64,000 nucleotides of DNA, from assembly GCA_035906255.1 (NCBI GenBank), contig JAMIFM010000011.1, positions 39,607-103,606 of the forward strand. Reading direction: 5' to 3'. The stretch comes from Bacteroidia bacterium. Lineage in GTDB: Bacteria > Bacteroidota > Bacteroidia > UBA8524. Under the pieces are notes generated by a model. The model had not been told where the DNA came from, searched no databases, and was given only the letters and a program-made list of their open reading frames with translations. Below are positions 6,540 to 20,100 of the stretch, piece after piece (position 1 is the stretch's first letter; every line of letters starts with the position of its first letter). A program made the translations under genes and the position numbers.

Positions 6540-6917
6540 ATGAGGGAACTTATTACAAGAACTGAGACCATCACTCTTGATGAGTCGGGAATTGTTAGGT
6601 GCATCGTTCACAAAGATGCTTATATGGAATTAGAGGATGCCATTGAAAATGTTAAAGCAGTTGAAACTTTAACAAACGGCAAACCCATCCCTGTGTATGT
6701 TGATATCAGGTTATCAAAAGGCTCCTCAAAAGAAGCGAGGGCATATTTGGCCGGCTTTGAGGTTGCTGATGTACAGGTGGCTTGCGGCCTTCTTGTAGAT
6801 TCAATGTTATCTCAATTAATTGGTAATTTTTTTCTGGGACTTAATAAAACAAAGTTTCCTGTTAAACTTTTTAAAGACGAAGAAAAAGCAATGGAGTGGC
6901 TTAAAACATATTTATAG
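6540..6917 (+). CDS. Small STAS/SpoIIAA-like (DUF3478-type) protein, a putative partner-switching or sensor module for the downstream kinase.
   Basis: 125 aa. The stop TAG at 6915-6917 directly abuts the ATG of the histidine kinase. The fold call rests on the alternating beta/alpha pattern and the C-terminal ...KLFKDEEKAMEWLK motif typical of that family (recollection, not a search). Confidence 0.45.
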   Translation: MRELITRTETITLDESGIVRCIVHKDAYMELEDAIENVKAVETLTNGKPIPVYVDIRLSKGSSKEARAYLAGFEVADVQVACGLLVDSMLSQLIGNFFLGLNKTKFPVKLFKDEEKAMEWLKTYL

Positions 6918-7790
6918 ATGGAAATATTAGTTGAGAGGAAAAGGATTAATGAATTAATAGAAATGATAGGGGCTATGGCAAGTCTTGATTTCTCAAAGCG
7001 GATTGCTACCGAAATTACCGACCAGCCTATTGACGTAATGGCATACGGACTAAATATGCTAAGTGAAGAATTGGAAGCCAATATGGTTAGAAAATCAATG
7101 TTGGAAGAAACCAACCGCAATTTGGAACGGTTTGGTTTTACAGTGGCACATGATATAAAATCACCGCTAAGTTCTGCATATACCTTAACCACACTTATAG
7201 AAGATGAGTTGGAGGGGATTGAAAATCAAACCTTAAAAAACTACATCCAACTGCTTAAGGGAATAAATGAACAAACCCGCGAAATGGTAAATGGTATCTT
7301 GGATTACTCAAGAACCAATTACAACAACATGAAGAAAGAAGATGTAGATTTAAAAAGCCTTCTGGGTCAAATAAAACAAGAATACAGCGTTAACGAATCT
7401 ATACATATCACGTTTTCTGATAACCTGCCGATAGTAAATTATAACGCCTTTGCATTGAAACAGATTTTGGGTAACCTTATAAACAATGCTGTGAAACATA
7501 ACGATAAACCTCAATGTAAACTTGAAATACAACATATTGATAGGGAAACTTTTTATGAAATCTCCGTTACCGATAACGGACCGGGTATTTCTATAACTGA
7601 TAAAGAAAAGGTGTTTGATTTGTTTGAAAACCTTAGGAGTGATAAAGAAAACAGTCATGGTGTAGGCCTATCAATAGTAAAAAAATTGGTTACTCAGGCC
7701 AATGGCTCAGTATGGGTGGATACCAATAATAAAAGTGGGGCAAAATTTGTATTCACCATTGATAAACCTTCTGTTGCCATTGGTGTTTAA
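6918..7790 (+). CDS. Cytoplasmic sensor histidine kinase (HisKA + HATPase_c) with no TM or obvious sensor domain.
   Basis: H-box at VAHDIKSPL. N box (NLINNAVKHN), G1 (VTDNGPGI) and G2 (GVGLSIVKKL) are present. N-terminal ~60 aa are coiled-coil. No hydrophobic segments. Confidence 0.85.
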   Translation: MEILVERKRINELIEMIGAMASLDFSKRIATEITDQPIDVMAYGLNMLSEELEANMVRKSMLEETNRNLERFGFTVAHDIKSPLSSAYTLTTLIEDELEGIENQTLKNYIQLLKGINEQTREMVNGILDYSRTNYNNMKKEDVDLKSLLGQIKQEYSVNESIHITFSDNLPIVNYNAFALKQILGNLINNAVKHNDKPQCKLEIQHIDRETFYEISVTDNGPGISITDKEKVFDLFENLRSDKENSHGVGLSIVKKLVTQANGSVWVDTNNKSGAKFVFTIDKPSVAIGV

Positions 7791-7829
7791 TCCTATTTGT
7801 TAAACACTACTTATCATTAGCCTCAAAGC

Positions 7830-7838
7830 GTATCTTTG
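7830..7838 (+). promoter_or_regulatory. Candidate Bacteroidetes sigma-A -7 element (TAnnTTTG) immediately upstream of the ddl-like gene. Implies a very short or leaderless 5' UTR.
   Basis: The sequence gcgTATCTTTGcgcc ends about 5 nt before ATG 7843. Matches the established Bacteroidetes -7 consensus TAnnTTTG. No computed scan was done. Confidence 0.3.
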
Positions 7839-7842
7839 CGCC

Positions 7843-10518
7843 GTGATAAAAGTTGGCATATTTTTCGGCGGAGCTTCTCGCGAAAGAGAAGTATCGTTTT
7901 CAGGCGGCAGAACCGTGTATGATAACCTTAATAAGTTATTGTTTGCACCTGTTCCGTTGTTTGTGGATAGCTTTAATACCATTATTCTTTTAAACAAAGA
8001 ACTGATATACAAAGGCAGTATCCGAGATTTTTACCCACCCGTACAATACCTGCCCGAAACACAGCATAATTTTCAAGTATATATCGAAAGTTTAGAAGCC
8101 GATGTTAAAAACGGTAACATAAACTACGAGGAGATGATAGGTCGTATTGGCCGCAAAGTGAATATTGACGAGTTACCACAACTGATTGATATAGCTTTTT
8201 TGGCTTTGCACGGCAGCTATGGCGAAGACGGCACTATACAGGGTTTGCTTGAATGGTTAAAAATTCCCTACACCGGTTCGGGCATTTTACCTTCGGCAAT
8301 AGGTATTAGTAAGGCAATACAAAAACAGTTTTTGCAGGCAGGTGGGTTTGATACCCCAAATTACACGCTGGTAACCCGCAACCAATGGGAAGAAAACCGT
8401 TTAGTTAATACACTTTCGCTTACCTATCCGTTGGTAGTGAAACCTGCCAACCAAGGTTCATCATTGGGAGTTAGTGTAGTAAAAACAGCAGACGAATTAG
8501 CGGCGGCTATTGATAAAGCCTTCTTTAATATTACTGTTACTGCATACGAATGGAATCAATTAAACACACTTCAAAAAATTGAATATGTGCGTTCTGTGTG
8601 CGACATACGCGAAGGATTAGGACTACCGCTATTGTTTAATAATAAGCAGATTAACCTGCCCGACGAGGTATTAAATACTTTCGAACAGGAATTGCAAAAT
8701 GCACCCCATGTTAACTTACAGGCACTGCAAAATGAAAGTGAGGTATTGATAGAGGAGTTTGTAAAAGGTCGTGAATTTTCATGTATTGTTATCAGAGGGC
8801 TGGATGGAAAACCTGTTGCCTTGCCTCCTACCGAAATTGTAAAAGGACAAGAGGTGTTTGATTACCGCTCTAAATACCTGCCCGGATTATCGCGTAAAGT
8901 AACCCCGATTGATTTGCCCGAAGCTCAAATAGAGGCTATTCGTCAAAAAGCACAGCAGCTATACAGCTATTTCAGGTTTAATACTTATGCCCGATTGGAT
9001 GGCTTTATTACTACAGAAGGTAAAATCTTCTTAAACGACCCTAATACCACCTCAGGCATGATGCCCTCGTCATTTTTCTTCCATCAGGCAGCAGAAATAG
9101 GGTTAAACCCCTCACAGTTCCTTACTTATATACTTTATACCAGCTTGAAAGAACGTATTGAAACCAGCATGGAAAACTTCCATTACAAGGCTGTTTTTAA
9201 TCGTTTAGAAACCGAGCTTTCAAATACCGCAAACCAAGCCCAAGAAAAGAAACGCATTGCTGTGGTTATGGGCGGTTATTCTACCGAGCGACATATCTCT
9301 ATGGAGAGCGGACGCAATATTTATGAAAAACTTTCATCATCGCCCAAATACACCCCCGTTCCTGTGTTTTTAACAGGCAGTGACGAATCTTACCAAATGT
9401 ATCTTGTTCCGGTAAGCATGATGCTGAAAGACAATGCCGATGATATTGCCGAGAAGGTGAAAAACTATCACCCCAACCCCTACCTGCAAAAGATTGCCGA
9501 TGAATGCCTGCCTGTTTTGCAGCGTTTCGGTAACGGACAAAAGCACGATGCAACACCTCATTTAATTGGGTTTGAACAATTGGCACAATTAGCCGACGGT
9601 GTATTTATTGCCTTGCACGGAAGACCGGGAGAAGACGGCAACTTGCAAGTACAGCTTGAAAAAGTAGGTTTGCCTTATAACGGTTCAGGGTATTACAGCT
9701 CACAAATCACCATTAATAAGTACGATACTGCTGAATTATTGGCCGCTAACGGATTTTCGGTAGCACCGCACGTATTGGCCAAAAAAGAAGACTGGGCAAC
9801 TGACAGCGCAGCGTTTTATGATAAAATACTGTCGGTTACAGGGCTGCCGATGATTGCAAAACCTGCCGACGACGGGTGTAGCAGTGCGGTGAAAAAGATA
9901 AAAACCCGCGAGGAACTGGATGCTTTTGCCCGTTTGATGTTTAGGGAAACCGAAACCCGTGAGCCTGAATTGGAACAACGATTAAAATTATTACCCAAAG
10001 AGGAGTTTCCGCGTAAAAGTTATTTCTTGGCCGAAAAGTTCATTGACAAATCGGATGCTAAAATATTTTTAGAAGTTACCGGCGGTTTGCTTACCCACCG
10101 GACAGAAAACGGTGGAATACGCTATGAAATGTTTGAACCCAGCGAAACACTGGCCGAAAAAGAAATCCTTTCGCTTGAGGAAAAGTTTTTGGCAGGACAG
10201 GGGCAAAACATTACCCCTGCGCGTTATTCAAAAGAGCCTGTTGAAGACCGCTATATTGCCGATGCGGTGAAAACCGAGTTGGAAAAGGCGGCAAAATTGT
10301 TGAATATTGAAGGCTACGCGCGGATAGATGCTTTTGTAAAAGTACACCACAACAACCAAGTGGAAGTAATATTTATAGAGGTTAATTCGTTGCCCGGTAT
10401 GACCCCCGCTACTTGCATCTTTCATCAAAGTGCATTAAACGGGTATATGCCTTATGATTTTATTGATAAAATATTACAATACGGTTTCACCAAAAACAAT
10501 GCACAGCAAGCAAACTGA
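7843..10518 (+). CDS. ddl: Tandem-duplicated D-alanine--D-alanine ligase-like protein (two complete ATP-grasp Ddl modules in one 891 aa polypeptide).
   Basis: Both halves carry Ddl hallmarks. Module 1 has GGxSxExEVS, HGxxGEDGxxQGLLE and an ATP-grasp core (LVVKPANQGSSLGVSVV, EEFVKGREFSC). Module 2 has RIAVVMGGYSTERHISMESG, LHGRPGEDGNLQ, MIAKPADDGCSSAV and the C-terminal EVNSLPGMT. Module 1 has unusually long inserts. Confidence 0.75.
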   Translation: MIKVGIFFGGASREREVSFSGGRTVYDNLNKLLFAPVPLFVDSFNTIILLNKELIYKGSIRDFYPPVQYLPETQHNFQVYIESLEADVKNGNINYEEMIGRIGRKVNIDELPQLIDIAFLALHGSYGEDGTIQGLLEWLKIPYTGSGILPSAIGISKAIQKQFLQAGGFDTPNYTLVTRNQWEENRLVNTLSLTYPLVVKPANQGSSLGVSVVKTADELAAAIDKAFFNITVTAYEWNQLNTLQKIEYVRSVCDIREGLGLPLLFNNKQINLPDEVLNTFEQELQNAPHVNLQALQNESEVLIEEFVKGREFSCIVIRGLDGKPVALPPTEIVKGQEVFDYRSKYLPGLSRKVTPIDLPEAQIEAIRQKAQQLYSYFRFNTYARLDGFITTEGKIFLNDPNTTSGMMPSSFFFHQAAEIGLNPSQFLTYILYTSLKERIETSMENFHYKAVFNRLETELSNTANQAQEKKRIAVVMGGYSTERHISMESGRNIYEKLSSSPKYTPVPVFLTGSDESYQMYLVPVSMMLKDNADDIAEKVKNYHPNPYLQKIADECLPVLQRFGNGQKHDATPHLIGFEQLAQLADGVFIALHGRPGEDGNLQVQLEKVGLPYNGSGYYSSQITINKYDTAELLAANGFSVAPHVLAKKEDWATDSAAFYDKILSVTGLPMIAKPADDGCSSAVKKIKTREELDAFARLMFRETETREPELEQRLKLLPKEEFPRKSYFLAEKFIDKSDAKIFLEVTGGLLTHRTENGGIRYEMFEPSETLAEKEILSLEEKFLAGQGQNITPARYSKEPVEDRYIADAVKTELEKAAKLLNIEGYARIDAFVKVHHNNQVEVIFIEVNSLPGMTPATCIFHQSALNGYMPYDFIDKILQYGFTKNNAQQAN

Positions 10519-11288
10519 TGGCAAATAAATTCGTTACGGGCTTTTTACATTCAAAATGGTGGGCAAAACTGCTTATAGGCATTGCATCGGTATTACTATT
10601 CTTGCTGGTAATAAATTGGTTGTTGAAATTTATCACCAATCACGGGCAAAGTTTACCCGTGCCTAAAGTAAAGGGATTGGTTTTTGACGAAGCTACCCGT
10701 TTGCTGGATGAAAAAGATTTGCGTTATGTGGTGTTTGATTCGGTGTATGTACCAAAAGCCAAACCCAACCAAGTGGTTGACCAAAACCCGGCTGAGGGTA
10801 CCAAAGTGAAGAAAAACCGCATTGTGTACCTTACCATAAATGCACGACCCGTACCTATTGTGAAGGTACCCGATATTTTGGATATTGGCCTGCGTGAAGC
10901 AGTAAGCAAACTTACTGCCGAAGGTTTGGAAGTGGGCGAAATTACCACCCGTGCCGATTTATCAGTAAACAGGGTATTGGGTATTAGCATCAATGGTAAA
11001 AAAATAAAAGCGGGTGATGCGATTGAAAAGGGAAGTAAGATTGATTTGGTGATAAGCAAAGGCGAGGACGCGAGTGACAAGAATATTGTGATGCCCGATC
11101 TTGCAGGATTAACTTTAGACGAAGCCACAATAGAATTGAGCCTTTTAGGGTTAAATATAGGTGCGGTATCGTACGATAAAAACGTTACCGATAAAATAAC
11201 GTCCAAAATATACCGCCAAACCCCCGATGCGGGTAGAGGTGCCTATATTGGGCAGGAAATTGATTTGTTTTTAAAGCAAAGCGACTAA
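10518..11288 (+). CDS. Membrane-anchored protein with three PASTA domains.
   Basis: Its ATG overlaps the ddl TGA (cTGATGg). N-terminal TM (WAKLLIGIASVLLFLLVINWLL) is followed by three ~65 aa repeats with a PASTA-like pattern (VPxLxGLxxxEAxxxLxxxGL...). 256 aa. Confidence 0.7.
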   Translation: MANKFVTGFLHSKWWAKLLIGIASVLLFLLVINWLLKFITNHGQSLPVPKVKGLVFDEATRLLDEKDLRYVVFDSVYVPKAKPNQVVDQNPAEGTKVKKNRIVYLTINARPVPIVKVPDILDIGLREAVSKLTAEGLEVGEITTRADLSVNRVLGISINGKKIKAGDAIEKGSKIDLVISKGEDASDKNIVMPDLAGLTLDEATIELSLLGLNIGAVSYDKNVTDKITSKIYRQTPDAGRGAYIGQEIDLFLKQSD

Positions 11289-11290
11289 TA

Positions 11291-13171
11291 ATGTTTAAAA
11301 AGCTATCGGGCGCAATAGCCCTTATATGTATTGGTTTTGGTGTAAATGCTCAGCTAAATGAGGAGATGTTGGTTCCCCTTACGGCAAACCCTGCACTAAA
11401 ACAGCAATTGCAACACAAAAATTCAAACTCAACCTTTATACGCAAAAGCGGTATTAAAGACACCTTGCTACTGCCTTTTTTTGAGGATTTTTCTAAAGGT
11501 GAAGTATTTCCTGATGAAAACCGCTGGACGAACCGGCTGGCCTATGTAAATACGGATTTTCCTGTAAAAGCACCCAGTATAGGTGTGGCTACTTTAGACG
11601 CACTTGACAGTACAGGTCGCCCTTATTTAAACATTCGGGCTGATTTACACGGCCCTTGTGATACCCTTACCTCACAACCTATTGATATTTCGGCCTACAG
11701 CAGTGGAAACAATATCTTCCTGAGCTTTTTTTATCAGGCACAGGGTTTAAGTTTTCAATCGTTACAAGGCAAAGACTCTTTAATCCTTCAATTTAAAAAT
11801 AACTTAGGATTTTGGTACACCGTATGGTCAACACCCGGTATAGCATTAGCTGATTTTAAACCTGTGTTGCTAAAATTAGAAGCCACTGAATATTTCCATG
11901 CAGGTTTCCAGTTCCGTTTTATTAATTATCAAAGCTATATAGGCGGTGTGGGTCAATGGCACCTTGATTATATATACATGGAACGTAATCGTACCGCAGC
12001 CGACAGTGTTTTTGCCGATGTGGCGGTTTCACAAAAACCAATGTCGTTTTTGAAAGAATACCAAGAAATGCCTTTTGACCAATTCAAAGGGTTTGAATCA
12101 TTGGAAGTTACCGATAGCACAAGAGGATATTTAAGCAATTTATTTGACCAAGGCCGTACGGTTGACGTTTTTAACCGCCAAGTATATGATGATGCAGGGA
12201 ATTTGGTAATTAACCAACCCGGTAGCGGTTTTTCTATTGACCCGTTCAGCGAAAAAGGGTTCGGGGTTGCCTCTAATTACAACGTTGTTGCCCGTACCGA
12301 AGATACTGTAACCTATACGGCTTCTGAGTTTTTAAAAATTACGGGAGCAAATTTCAGGATTGCAAACGATTCAGTTAGCCGTAAACTCACGTTTGCCAAT
12401 TATTATGCTTACGACGACGGTACTGCTGAAACAGGCTACGGACTAAAGCGCGGTTCGGGCAAAATAGCCTATCGTTTCAGACTTAACAAACCCGATAGTT
12501 TGCGCGCTATCTCGGTGTACTATTTTCAGGCTGAAGACACCGTTAAACGTGCATTTAACCTTGCTGTTTGGGAAAGTATTTCTCCTAACGGCTCTAATGA
12601 AAAACTATTATATACTAAGCTGGTAAATTACCCCAGCTATACCGACTCAATAAACGGTTACCATACCTATGTTTTAGACAGTGCTATTGCCGTGAGCGGT
12701 GAGTTTTATATCGGTTGGGTACAAACCACTACTTTCCATCTTAATGTAGGCTGGGATCGTAATTTTACCCGCGACCGTAAAGCAATAGCCAGCCCTGATT
12801 TGTATTTTAATACTACAGGTAAGTGGTATCTTTCTGAAATACCCGGCACGTTGATGATGCGTCCGCACGTAGGTAAAAACTTCATACAAGACACCACTTT
12901 GGTAAGTGTGAAGCCCTTGAGTTCTTTAAACCGCAACACCGTTAATGTGTATCCCAACCCCGCTTCAACTGAAATTTCGGTAGATATAGCCCAACAAGAT
13001 ATATACACCTACTCTATTACTGACATAGCAGGAAAAACTATTAACACAGGGGTTATAAACACTTTTGAAACAAATACACTGCCTATCAGTATATTGCCAA
13101 ACGGATTATATTTTTTAACTTTACATAATCCTAATACAGGATTTTACACGACTAAATTCATAAAACAGTAA
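11291..13171 (+). CDS. Secreted T9SS cargo protein (C-terminal Por secretion tail) of unknown function.
   Basis: Signal peptide is present. The C-terminal ~80 aa (VNVYPNPAS...LPNGLYFLTLHNPNTGFYTTKFIKQ) match the T9SS type A CTD. Starts 3 nt after the PASTA gene stop. Confidence 0.75.
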   Translation: MFKKLSGAIALICIGFGVNAQLNEEMLVPLTANPALKQQLQHKNSNSTFIRKSGIKDTLLLPFFEDFSKGEVFPDENRWTNRLAYVNTDFPVKAPSIGVATLDALDSTGRPYLNIRADLHGPCDTLTSQPIDISAYSSGNNIFLSFFYQAQGLSFQSLQGKDSLILQFKNNLGFWYTVWSTPGIALADFKPVLLKLEATEYFHAGFQFRFINYQSYIGGVGQWHLDYIYMERNRTAADSVFADVAVSQKPMSFLKEYQEMPFDQFKGFESLEVTDSTRGYLSNLFDQGRTVDVFNRQVYDDAGNLVINQPGSGFSIDPFSEKGFGVASNYNVVARTEDTVTYTASEFLKITGANFRIANDSVSRKLTFANYYAYDDGTAETGYGLKRGSGKIAYRFRLNKPDSLRAISVYYFQAEDTVKRAFNLAVWESISPNGSNEKLLYTKLVNYPSYTDSINGYHTYVLDSAIAVSGEFYIGWVQTTTFHLNVGWDRNFTRDRKAIASPDLYFNTTGKWYLSEIPGTLMMRPHVGKNFIQDTTLVSVKPLSSLNRNTVNVYPNPASTEISVDIAQQDIYTYSITDIAGKTINTGVINTFETNTLPISILPNGLYFLTLHNPNTGFYTTKFIKQ

Positions 13172-13179
13172 ACAATTAT

Positions 13180-13491
13180 ATGGACATTACCTCCGAAGAA
13201 TTAAAAACGCGCATGGATAATGGTGAAGACCTTATCGTAATTGATGTGCGTGAGCCTCACGAATACGAAGAATTTAACATTGGCGGTCGCCTTATTCCAT
13301 TGGGTACATTGCCTACAGTGGTTGATGAGTTGGAAGACCTTAAAGGCGAAGAAATAATAGTACACTGCCGCAGCGGTGCCCGCAGCGGACAAGCAAAAGC
13401 ATACCTTGGTTCGATTGGTTTTACAAACGTTCGCAATTTGCTGGGCGGTGTAATGGACTGGCAGGCCAAGTATGGCGCAACCATGAAATAA
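13180..13491 (+). CDS. Single-domain rhodanese-like sulfurtransferase.
   Basis: 103 aa. Active-site loop CRSGARS. Typical rhodanese fold length. Confidence 0.85.
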   Translation: MDITSEELKTRMDNGEDLIVIDVREPHEYEEFNIGGRLIPLGTLPTVVDELEDLKGEEIIVHCRSGARSGQAKAYLGSIGFTNVRNLLGGVMDWQAKYGATMK

Positions 13492-13511
13492 GATTAAGAT
13501 TTAAACTTTAT

Positions 13512-13548
13512 AAACTAAAAAAGCCCCAAAACGGGGCTTTTTTAGTTT
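13512..13548. terminator. Bidirectional rho-independent terminator: 15-bp perfect palindrome aaactaaaaagcccc-aaaa-ggggctttttagttt.
   Basis: GC-rich stem flanked by A-runs and T-runs on both strands. Lies between convergent rhodanese and CapA-region genes. An identical copy is at 25716-25750. Confidence 0.6.
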
Positions 13549-13555
13549 ATGTGCC

Positions 13556-13612
13556 TTTCGACTTACCATCTTGAGCCTGCCGAAAGAGCCTTGAGCTTGT
13601 CGAAAGGCTTAT
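13556..13612 (+). repeat. Two tandem degenerate copies of the F-module of the mosaic repeat (ccttgagcctgccgaaagag / ccttgagcttgtcgaaagg).
   Basis: Matches ...ccatcttgagcctgccgaagggtg at 51880-51910 and cctgagcttgccgaaggg at 1968-1986. Confidence 0.45.
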
Positions 13613-13613
13613 A

Positions 13614-14687
13614 TCATTTCTTTTTCACTACTTCTCCGTCATCACTTATTAATAGCGGTGTTTCAGGAAAATCGACTTTTGTAAGTTCTTGTATTAGCTT
13701 CAATGCCCATTGTTTTTCGATATCTACAACGGGTATGCCCTCTCCTATTTGTTTAATCGGTGTGATTTTAGCTCTTATAAAATTGCCTTTGGTATCGGTA
13801 GTTACTTTTACTATAGGAGCCACACCACTTTCGGCAGTCAGGCTAAAACGGTCATAAGTGGCAAAATTGCCCAAACTGTAGCAAATCAAGCGGTTGTTAT
13901 ACAACTCCATTGCGCGGGTCACGTGCGGCCCATGCCCAAATACAATATCAGCCCCCGCATCAATCACCGCATGGCTAAACTCGTACACATTCCCCCTGTT
14001 TTCACCAATAAACATTTCGGTATCGCGGGTTACGTGCTGTCGGTCACGGCCTTCCCCACCCCCGTGAAACGATACAATCAACACATCACACATACTATCC
14101 AAAGCGGCTACAATCACTTTAGCCCCTTCAATATCTTTAATACTTACCGTACCGCTATTGGGTGCAAATGCCGCTAACCCATACTTTATACCGTCTTTTT
14201 CTATTACTGTGGTTGGGCAGCTTAGCAAGCCTGCATATTGCAGCCCGCATTCTTCAAGAGTATTCATGGTAATTTCACGGCCTTCGGCACCAAAATCACC
14301 ACTGTGGTTGTTGGCAATGCTCAATAAATCAAAACCTGCATCTTTATAATATTTTGCATAATGCAAGGGCGAACGGAAAGCATAACACACTTTTGGGTTG
14401 CTGCATTTCTTTACTTTACCCTTATTGCCCGCTAACGTACCCTCAAGGTTACCAAAAGTAATATCAGCATCCTGCAAAATAGCCCTTACACTATCCAACA
14501 GGTTTTTACCGTCGTTCGGGGGTAAATGTTTTTCGCTGGGGTAATTTGTCCCCAACATCATATCACCCACACCAATAATCGTTAACACACGCAACGAAGT
14601 ATCATGCGATGCCGGATATGTTTCTACTTGTGCTGTGGCTTTAAATACAGATAATGCGATGTATAACGATGTTATTATGTATTTCAT
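13614..14687 (-). CDS. CapA/PGA_cap family metallophosphatase-like protein, secreted.
   Basis: Signal peptide is present. Motifs GVGDMMLG, ...NLEG..., NNHSGDFG and GHGPHV are typical of CapA (YwtB) family calcineurin-like phosphoesterases. Start overlaps the upstream MerR gene stop by 4 nt. Confidence 0.7.
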   Translation of the reverse strand: MKYIITSLYIALSVFKATAQVETYPASHDTSLRVLTIIGVGDMMLGTNYPSEKHLPPNDGKNLLDSVRAILQDADITFGNLEGTLAGNKGKVKKCSNPKVCYAFRSPLHYAKYYKDAGFDLLSIANNHSGDFGAEGREITMNTLEECGLQYAGLLSCPTTVIEKDGIKYGLAAFAPNSGTVSIKDIEGAKVIVAALDSMCDVLIVSFHGGGEGRDRQHVTRDTEMFIGENRGNVYEFSHAVIDAGADIVFGHGPHVTRAMELYNNRLICYSLGNFATYDRFSLTAESGVAPIVKVTTDTKGNFIRAKITPIKQIGEGIPVVDIEKQWALKLIQELTKVDFPETPLLISDDGEVVKKK

Positions 14688-19425: not shown

Positions 19426-20100
19426 TTAAAACAACTTCCAAATATCCAGCTTGGGTGCGGCGGCTGTAATTTTAACGGGCACTTTTTGCACAGGATGCAC
19501 AAAAGTTAGTTCGCGGGCGTGTAAGCAAATGCTGCCGTCTGAATTGGCCTCAGGATATCCGTATTTTAAATCGCCCACAATAGGCCCGATGGCCGTAGAA
19601 AGCTGCACCCGTATTTGGTGCGGACGGCCTGTAAGCGGGGTAACTTTTAATAAATAATACCCGGCACGTTCACCAATTAATTCAAAATCAAGTTCGGCAC
19701 GTTTGCTGCCCGGCACTTCGCGCAGGTGTGCCCTTGTGCGGTTTTGGTCGTGGTCTTTCACCAGCCAGTGTATCAACTTACCTTTCTCGTTGTGGGGTTT
19801 GTGTTTCAATATTGCCCAATAGGTTTTGTTCAAATCACGTTCCCTAAACTTCTCGTTCATACGCTCCAGCGCTTTGCTGGTACGTGCAAACAAACACACG
19901 CCCGATACAGGCCTGTCTATACGGTGTATCACACCCAAAAACACATCCCCGGGTTTGCCGTATTTATCTTTTATGTATGTCTTTATTTGGTCGGGCATGG
20001 CCTCGTCGCCGGTTTTATCGGCTTGCACCAACTGCCCTGCGGGTTTATTTACCGCTATTAAATGATTGTCTTCGAAAAGAACTGGAAATGAAAGGTTCAA
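19426..20100 (-). CDS. RluA-family pseudouridine synthase.
   Basis: Catalytic motif HRIDRPVSGV (HRLD-type) and KTYWAIL. 224 aa. Confidence 0.85.
   Translation of the reverse strand: MNLSFPVLFEDNHLIAVNKPAGQLVQADKTGDEAMPDQIKTYIKDKYGKPGDVFLGVIHRIDRPVSGVCLFARTSKALERMNEKFRERDLNKTYWAILKHKPHNEKGKLIHWLVKDHDQNRTRAHLREVPGSKRAELDFELIGERAGYYLLKVTPLTGRPHQIRVQLSTAIGPIVGDLKYGYPEANSDGSICLHARELTFVHPVQKVPVKITAAAPKLDIWKLF

Follow-up and report, generated by a model that had tools for sequence, protein, structure and literature searches.

We analysed a 64,000-nucleotide stretch of DNA, hereafter the window, from contig JAMIFM010000011.1 of a Bacteroidia bacterium (assembly GCA_035906255.1). On its forward strand, a compact gene cluster contains an open reading frame (ORF) of 256 codons whose product is a small inner-membrane protein made only of three PASTA domains beyond a short tail and one transmembrane (TM) helix. 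The gene is preceded by that of a double D-Ala-D-Ala ligase (Ddl) and is followed by genes for a type IX secretion system (T9SS) cargo protein and for a rhodanese. The locus reads as follows (lengths in amino acids, aa; coordinates of the PASTA gene from the ORF list of the window):

7843..10518 (+): double D-Ala-D-Ala ligase (ddl2x), 891 aa, first gene of the cluster (ORF and Pfam)
10516..10520 (+): TGATG junction, in which the ddl2x stop codon TGA (10516-10518) and the PASTA start codon ATG (10518-10520) have one base in common
10518..11288 (+): PASTA-only bitopic membrane protein, 256 aa (Pfam, NCBIfam, starts of homologues, AlphaFold2, Foldseek)
11291..13171 (+): protein with a T9SS type-A C-terminal domain (CTD), here called the cargo, 626 aa (Por_Secre_tail E=6e-10, signal peptide, jelly-roll beta-sandwich domains)
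13180..13491 (+): single-domain rhodanese, 103 aa (Pfam Rhodanese E=1.2e-15), which closes the tight cluster in the window's lineage

The base common to the ligase and PASTA genes, 10518, lies in the local sequence AAC TGA TGG. An earlier interpretation made from the DNA letters alone, the sequence-only reading, had recognised this overlap and placed the start of the PASTA gene at 10516; that position is the first base of the ligase stop codon, and the ORF begins at 10518. It also gave the downstream order correctly, cargo and then rhodanese, and set the cargo gene 3 nucleotides (nt) away; with the PASTA stop codon TAA at 11286-11288 and the cargo ATG at 11291, the two genes are separated by 2 nt. 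Between the end of the cargo gene at 13171 and the start of the rhodanese gene at 13180 lie 8 nt. Because the junctions of the cluster measure -1, 2 and 8 nt, we infer that the double Ddl, the PASTA protein, the T9SS jelly-roll protein and the rhodanese are encoded on one transcript in the window's lineage.

Domain content, topology and fold

The PASTA-only protein is built from the following parts, the location of each with respect to the membrane being a prediction:

10518..10568 (+): cytoplasmic N-terminal tail, aa 1-17, with 3 Lys and no acidic residue; conservation 0.38
10569..10625 (+): single TM helix, aa 18-36, Kyte-Doolittle mean 2.7 over 19 residues; helix at aa 14-40 in the AlphaFold2 model
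10635..10646 (+): juxtamembrane T-x-H-G motif (T40, H42, G43) on the periplasmic face, from the family alignment
10659..10853 (+): PASTA domain 1, aa 48-112, 48.1 bits; the most conserved (0.61) and most basic of the three
10854..11066 (+): PASTA domain 2, aa 113-183, 33.8 bits; AlphaFold2 secondary structure
11088..11279 (+): PASTA domain 3, aa 191-254, 34.9 bits; acidic

The Pfam PASTA family (PF03793) matches the protein over three stretches with E=6.8e-29 and 100.1 bits (cut-off 23.2), and each repeat exceeds the cut-off when scanned singly. The Pfam scan of the 256-aa protein returned no family besides PASTA, and neither a kinase (Pkinase) nor a transpeptidase domain was found. The NCBIfam model of PASTA kinases, NF033483, reaches 102 bits against a cut-off of 450, with only positions 333-561 of 563 aligned; this part of the model comprises the TM segment plus the PASTA region and not the kinase. 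Both defining catalytic domains were looked for and are missing; the protein thus belongs to the PASTA superfamily but is neither a PASTA kinase nor a penicillin-binding protein (PBP). The three PASTA repeats and the anchor-plus-PASTA composition proposed by the sequence-only reading are thus borne out, by the profiles of Pfam and NCBIfam and, for the repeats, also by the fold.

The protein has only one hydrophobic stretch, aa 18-36. Because a Lys-rich tail without acidic residues precedes this sole TM helix, the N terminus is predicted to lie inside and the PASTA domains to be periplasmic. The start codon is backed by homologues, which open with MA(N/S/K)KF.

The AlphaFold2 model, built on 32 homologues, has a mean predicted local distance difference test score (pLDDT) of 88.9 and shows a long N-terminal helix followed by three helix-plus-strands units, the pattern typical of PASTA domains of ~65-70 aa. 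Its best Foldseek matches are the PASTA ectodomains of Staphylococcus aureus PrkC/Stk1 (3py9, 3m9g) and Mycobacterium tuberculosis PknB (5e12), at E ~3e-12, followed by the PASTA domains of PBP1 and PBP2x; every top match is a PASTA structure. At the sequence level, the family profile described below matched the PASTA region of S. aureus Stk1 (3py9) in the PDB at 7e-19. When the repeats were aligned with each other, repeats 2 and 3 were detectably similar (z=6.5), and repeat 1 was weakly similar to the other two (z=2.0 and 3.3). That there are three is established by the profile and the fold and would not follow from raw self-similarity alone.

A large Bacteroidota family with invariant residues of its own

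The sequence-only reading presented the PASTA-only architecture as unusual. An initial search returned 58 relatives, all of them PASTA-only and nearly all 180-300 aa long. When 1.84 billion representative proteins were searched with the family profile, there were 32,683 matches at E≤0.001; the stricter threshold of E≤1e-30 left 3,421 representative clusters (50% identity). Dozens of full-length proteins of 250-300 aa are among the best 150 matches. A second profile, made from Flavobacterium, Marinilabiliaceae and Reichenbachiella members, matched 2,467 proteins at E≤1e-10. Since two profiles find clusters and proteins in such numbers, many of them already named, the architecture is not a rarity: it defines a large Bacteroidota family that is already annotated and is uncharacterised. 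In the full text searched, a collection without most subscription journals, we found no paper on it.

Existing names are "PASTA domain-containing protein" (NCBI, UniRef) and "beta-lactam-binding protein with PASTA domain" (Joint Genome Institute, JGI, and NCBI). In addition, JGI labels many kinase-less members "eukaryotic-like serine/threonine-protein kinase", an error propagated from the PASTA region of true kinases. Taken at its word, the second name would make the window protein a beta-lactam-binding protein or a decoy. That name is inherited from one crystal contact in PBP2x, and the gene is housekeeping-like and phylum-wide, with rluD and ddl as neighbours instead of a resistance context, so that we consider such a function very unlikely. 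The wording goes back to the 2002 description of the PASTA domain, as that description is cited in PMC5706477.

Across 32 aligned members, with identity down to 29%, T40, H42, K98 and R101 show no variation, and at least 90% of the members keep G43, with two exceptions. The His of T-x-H-G is a Gln in the Marinilabiliaceae (Bacteroidales-type) member. K98 and R101 lie in PASTA 1, and the invariants are specific to the PASTA-only family; the Q-x-P and G-x-x-V positions, in contrast, belong to the generic PASTA consensus. Mean column conservation is 0.38 in the cytoplasmic tail versus 0.61 in PASTA 1, and the mean net charge over the family falls along the ectodomain from +2.2 in PASTA 1 to +1.4 in PASTA 2 and -3.5 in the distal PASTA 3. 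The conserved features concentrate at the periplasmic membrane face (T-x-H-G) and in the membrane-proximal, basic PASTA 1. PASTA 3 is absent from the 207-aa Flavobacterium orthologues, and the protein of Flavobacterium aquatile (locus L006) has two PASTA domains. The window protein fits the layout of the family, which is bitopic with the N terminus in and has T-x-(H/Q)-G just behind the TM helix, two or three PASTA domains and a total length of 200-300 aa. The kinase-less, membrane-anchored PASTA form is a core-like gene across Bacteroidota.

These data also bear on the idea that the protein is the remnant of a decayed PASTA Ser/Thr kinase, kept by chance and devoid of a function of its own. 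The alignment of the NCBIfam kinase model to the TM plus PASTA region (333-561) would fit such an origin. However, the family has thousands of intact, full-length members, its specific residues are invariant, and both its start and its gene order are conserved. Moreover, no kinase-domain leftover lies upstream in the window, where the ddl2x ORF reaches the PASTA start codon. Neither a kinase-bearing basal-Bacteroidota orthologue with the same neighbours nor relaxed selection (a ratio of nonsynonymous to synonymous substitution rates, dN/dS, near 1) was seen in this analysis. A decayed remnant is accordingly extremely improbable.

The searches also returned PASTA proteins of other kinds. Representative-library matches P0179-P0204 are giant proteins of 1,000-3,400 aa with up to 21 PASTA-profile stretches. 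P0011 (292 aa), a PASTA copy with 94% identity, was found among eukaryote proteomes, pointing to contamination or to an organism that lives in association with a eukaryotic host. L011 (P0053, 255 aa, 25% identity) is a distant PASTA-only protein encoded near def, fmt and rsmB on the opposite strand, genes that border the Firmicutes PASTA kinase operon; it may represent a separate origin of kinase-less PASTA. Given its unrelated neighbourhood and 25% identity, it was excluded from the family counts.

Gene neighbourhoods across Bacteroidota

The order of genes around the PASTA gene was compared in individual loci, including some from metagenome-assembled genomes (MAGs), with the following arrangements:

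Window and L001-L004 (Bacteroidia MAGs): double ddl, PASTA, T9SS cargo, rhodanese; stop/start overlap of 1 nt
L013 (PASTA 39% identical to the window's): double ddl (909 aa), PASTA, cargo, rhodanese; ddl-PASTA gap of 13 nt
L015 (PASTA 37% identical to the window's): double ddl (898 aa), PASTA, cargo; ddl-PASTA gap of 35 nt
L010 (Reichenbachiella): opposite-strand ddl, followed by PASTA, cargo
L012: PASTA, cargo; ddl absent
L014 and L016: PASTA, cargo, rluD; no ddl
L006 (Flavobacterium aquatile): divergent ddl, then PASTA, rluD
L005 (Marinilabiliaceae MAG): PASTA, rluD, ddl

We further collected 80 metagenome loci with a narrow family alignment and scored their neighbours by tblastn. Clustering at 70% identity divides them into 48 groups, clustering at 50% into 19; their PASTA proteins are 32-46% identical to that of the window. 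Among the 63 loci with at least 400 nt downstream, the gene directly after PASTA encodes the cargo in 57, rluD in 5 and something else in 1. The cargo start lies a median of -4 nt from the PASTA stop, and this spacing is at most 30 nt in 59 of 64 loci, as measured by a first-ATG rule under which some starts may be over-extended. Where at least 3.5 kb follow the PASTA gene, rluD lies within 3 kb downstream in 27 of 36 loci. A ddl gene occurs within 5 kb in 7 of the 19 fully flanked metagenome loci, on either side and on either strand. On the basis of these counts, the conserved cluster is ddl / PASTA / T9SS cargo / rluD, with PASTA and cargo as its tight core. The most constant partner of the PASTA gene is thus the downstream T9SS cargo gene, which the sequence-only reading had treated as incidental, and not the D-Ala-D-Ala ligase gene.

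The ligase is nevertheless a recurrent neighbour. It adjoins PASTA or sits within 5 kb in four arrangements; by chance, such proximity of a single-copy gene would be expected in well under 1%. It is divergent in L006, L010, L081, L090 and L096 and follows rluD in L005, L024, L030, L047 and L065, among others; it stands directly upstream and in the same direction only where Ddl is doubled, that is, in the window, L001-L004, L013 and L015. The stop/start overlap reads TGATG in the window and L001 and TAATG in L002-L004, the 1-nt overlap being limited to this close family. The link to ddl is therefore real but loose: ddl is a frequent, movable and not a defining member of the cluster. Neither of the two outcomes that the sequence-only reading had named as refuting it, repeats that fail to match PASTA and a pairing that is not conserved, has occurred: the repeats are PASTA by profile and fold, and ddl lies beside or close to PASTA in distant Bacteroidota. 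Tight co-directional coupling is confined to the lineages with the double Ddl.

In the window's lineage, the cluster differs in its doubled Ddl, which lies upstream on the same strand with the 1-nt overlap, and in the rhodanese that stands where rluD is usually found; the rhodanese keeps this position in L001-L004 and L013. Orthologous rluD is absent from the cluster in this lineage. An RluA-family pseudouridine synthase paralogue is encoded in the window at ~19430-20097 (-), and it is 24-26% identical to the cluster-type rluD product.

The double ligase consists of two modules, aa 1-445 and 471-891, which share 25% identity. Pfam finds two stretches of Dala_Dala_lig_N and four of Dala_Dala_lig_C in the 891-aa protein. 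Each half, of ~420 aa, is a complete module with an insert relative to solved Ddl structures, and the N-terminal half is nearer to canonical Ddl (3r23, E=5e-42) than the C-terminal half is (1iow, E=3e-21). The fusion precedes PASTA in L001-L004, L013 and L015, and it must be old, since the PASTA proteins of the last two loci, whose Ddl fusions measure 898-909 aa, are only 37-39% identical to that of the window.

Could the PASTA protein be a dedicated sensor or scaffold of cell-wall precursors tied to D-Ala-D-Ala synthesis, touching, for example, Ddl or MurF, as the sequence-only reading proposed? The stop/start overlap in the window and L001, its TAATG equivalent in L002-L004, the position of ddl2x before PASTA even in lineages whose PASTA protein has diverged to 37-39% identity, and the enrichment of ddl near PASTA elsewhere would all be in line with such a tie. 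Ddl, however, is cytoplasmic, the compartment in which the PASTA protein shows only its 17 tail residues. Since these are poorly conserved and no output domain is present, the protein cannot signal alone, nor could it plausibly hold the ligase. The position and strand of ddl also vary, and in most of the fully flanked loci the gene is not within 5 kb. The neighbourhood part of the proposal is thus retained, and a direct tie to Ddl, or sensing, appears unlikely.

Several observations concern the surroundings of the cluster. L001 (contig CALRQL020000015.1), which is 94% identical to the window over the whole cluster, is filed under an "Agrobacterium sp." MAG and is most likely a mis-binned Bacteroidota contig. 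Upstream of the cluster in the window, a 125-aa ORF (6540..6917, +) directly precedes a 290-aa ORF (6918..7790, +) whose translation reads like that of a putative histidine kinase with no obvious membrane segment. This pair is kept at 68-70% identity in L001 and was not detected beside the cluster in L002-L004. We discount an opposite-strand ORF of 160 aa (10724..11206), which merely shadows the PASTA ORF. Near the PASTA locus, scans of the window for Rfam families and tRNAs gave no match.

The T9SS cargo protein

The cargo protein comprises a signal peptide, a body that matches no known family and the T9SS CTD. Its AlphaFold2 model (pLDDT 82.6) is all-beta, and Foldseek relates it, with low TM-scores, to reelin repeats and to the sugar-binding jelly-roll domains of glycoside hydrolase family 2 enzymes and of galactose oxidase. 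Pfam and NCBIfam scans of eight homologues, including forms of 934-960 aa, detected the CTD only; one homologue shows a sub-threshold match to Reelin_subrepeat-B. The family search gave 3,143 matches, some of which may have been found via the CTD alone, with lengths of ~620-650 aa and longer forms of ~930-960 aa. Homologues encoded next to PASTA genes are alike over the whole body and not over the CTD alone (26-32% identity over ~630 aa, E 2e-47 to 3e-85), and invariant residues occur in motifs at aa 62-67, at 373-380 and around 489-491. No catalytic domain is apparent, and the models suggest a surface protein with carbohydrate-binding-like domains.

The constancy of this neighbour raises the possibility that the PASTA protein works with it. 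The PASTA anchor and the T9SS protein would then be a phylum-wide two-gene module, in which the PASTA domains bind the cargo or tether it to peptidoglycan. The anchor, by binding peptidoglycan or lipid II, could act as a wall-anchored periplasmic escort or holding site that positions the surface protein before its export, or the two proteins could be an inner and an outer component of a single assembly that spans the envelope and links the wall to the outer surface. The direct succession of the two genes across loci as diverse as 48 clusters (70% identity) or 19 clusters (50% identity), their short or negative spacing, the whole-body homology of the cargo proteins and the survival of the pair where ddl is missing (L012, L014 and L016) all argue for a functional relation. 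Against it, Flavobacterium, Marinilabiliaceae and 5 of the 63 metagenome loci have rluD directly after PASTA and lack the cargo gene; because PASTA is kept in these cases, it has a function for which no adjacent cargo gene is required. Moreover, a literature search pairing the PASTA domain with type IX secretion found nothing relevant. No PASTA domain is known to act in secretion, which also counts against it. Such a partnership is a tentative possibility and the chief alternative to the adaptor role proposed below, but not the reading that we favour.

Comparison with known PASTA and wall-binding proteins

The closest known relatives, by both sequence profile and structure, are the Gram-positive PASTA kinases (Stk1/PrkC, 3py9 and 3m9g; PknB, 5e12 and 2kui; NF033483), which likewise have one TM helix followed by three or four external PASTA domains. 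The window protein differs from them in having 17 residues, and no kinase domain, where the kinases have ~330 residues. Because its host has two membranes, its PASTA domains are predicted to be periplasmic. T-x-H-G, K98 and R101 are particular to the Bacteroidota family. The genomic settings differ as well: in Firmicutes, PASTA kinases occur in a phosphatase-kinase operon arrangement, whereas the Bacteroidota neighbours are ddl, T9SS cargo and rluD.

The PASTA domains of class B PBPs (Streptococcus pneumoniae PBP2x, 1qme and 5oau; S. aureus PBP1, 7o4c) share the fold, with Foldseek E-values of 2e-6 to 1e-4. Apart from lacking the transpeptidase domain, the window protein has three PASTA domains where the PBPs have two, and it carries them directly after the membrane anchor, while those of the PBPs lie at the far end of the enzyme.

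Annotated Bacteroidota PASTA proteins, such as those of Flavobacterium aquatile (207 aa) and Reichenbachiella faecimaris (285 aa), belong to the same family. They are 37-40% identical to the window protein, share its TM helix, T-x-H-G and PASTA layout, and have ddl, T9SS cargo or rluD as neighbours. Compared with these relatives, the window has an overlapping, co-directional and doubled Ddl, whereas other lineages have a divergent single ddl, and it has the rhodanese instead of rluD. The Flavobacterium members, for their part, carry two PASTA domains and lack a neighbouring cargo gene.

A similar layout is known from the proteobacterial SPOR proteins FtsN, DedD and DamX, in which a short cytoplasmic tail and one TM helix precede one or more periplasmic wall-binding domains, with no enzyme domain. 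The resemblance is one of layout only, an analogy that offers a possible model of how the window protein acts: the folds are unrelated, and no homology was detected.

Discussion

We propose that the PASTA-only protein is a non-enzymatic periplasmic adaptor or positioning factor that binds peptidoglycan or lipid II on behalf of envelope assembly, a reading to which we assign a probability of about 0.5. In this proposal, the 17-residue tail would remain in the cytoplasm, and the three PASTA domains would reach into the periplasm as beads on a string. They may bind un-crosslinked stem peptides of peptidoglycan, or lipid II, as do those of PASTA kinases and class B PBPs, so that a wall precursor or nascent glycan would be bound near the membrane. 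The membrane helix, with T-x-H-G at the periplasmic face, could hold a partner located in the membrane or in the periplasm. The protein would thus act as an adaptor and not as a sensor with an output of its own, and it would do so from within a phylum-wide housekeeping cluster of ddl, PASTA, T9SS cargo and rluD.

The choice of ligand follows what has been described for other PASTA proteins. In kinases and PBPs, PASTA domains bind lipid II or un-crosslinked muropeptides, and their proteins are placed at sites of wall synthesis (PMC5706477). Binding of muropeptides, lipid II or beta-lactams is, however, not universal among known PASTA domains (PMC11044567).

Four observations weigh against the adaptor proposal or the framework on which it is built. 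The strongest genomic partners of the PASTA gene, the T9SS cargo and rluD, do not encode peptidoglycan enzymes. Apart from ddl, the conserved cluster contains no PBP gene, no gene of the shape, elongation, division and sporulation (SEDS) family and no Mur gene. The predicted template modelling score (pTM) of the AlphaFold2 model is only 0.47, which leaves the inter-domain geometry undefined. Finally, counts of promoters and terminators over 7400-13900, together with those of the Bacteroidota-type -33/-7 pattern, were at or below shuffle expectation and gave no indication of where the operon begins or ends.

The PASTA-only proteins of Bacteroidota form an annotated family, for which this analysis shows invariant motifs of its own and a conserved gene cluster. 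Work on PASTA domains has centred almost wholly on Gram-positive kinases and PBPs, and Bacteroidota, to our knowledge, lack the proteobacterial regulators FtsN and LpoA/B. If the family does bind wall precursors, it would constitute a missing accessory factor of wall synthesis in Bacteroidota. If its role is instead with the T9SS neighbour, it would connect the wall with the export of surface proteins, and if PASTA and cargo form a module, PASTA domains would have a role in the architecture of a two-membrane envelope that is new with respect to the work in Gram-positive bacteria. The gene in the window is an ordinary member of this family, and the interest lies at the family level, in a kinase-less PASTA anchor whose gene is tightly coupled to that of a conserved T9SS surface protein, with ddl and rluD close by.

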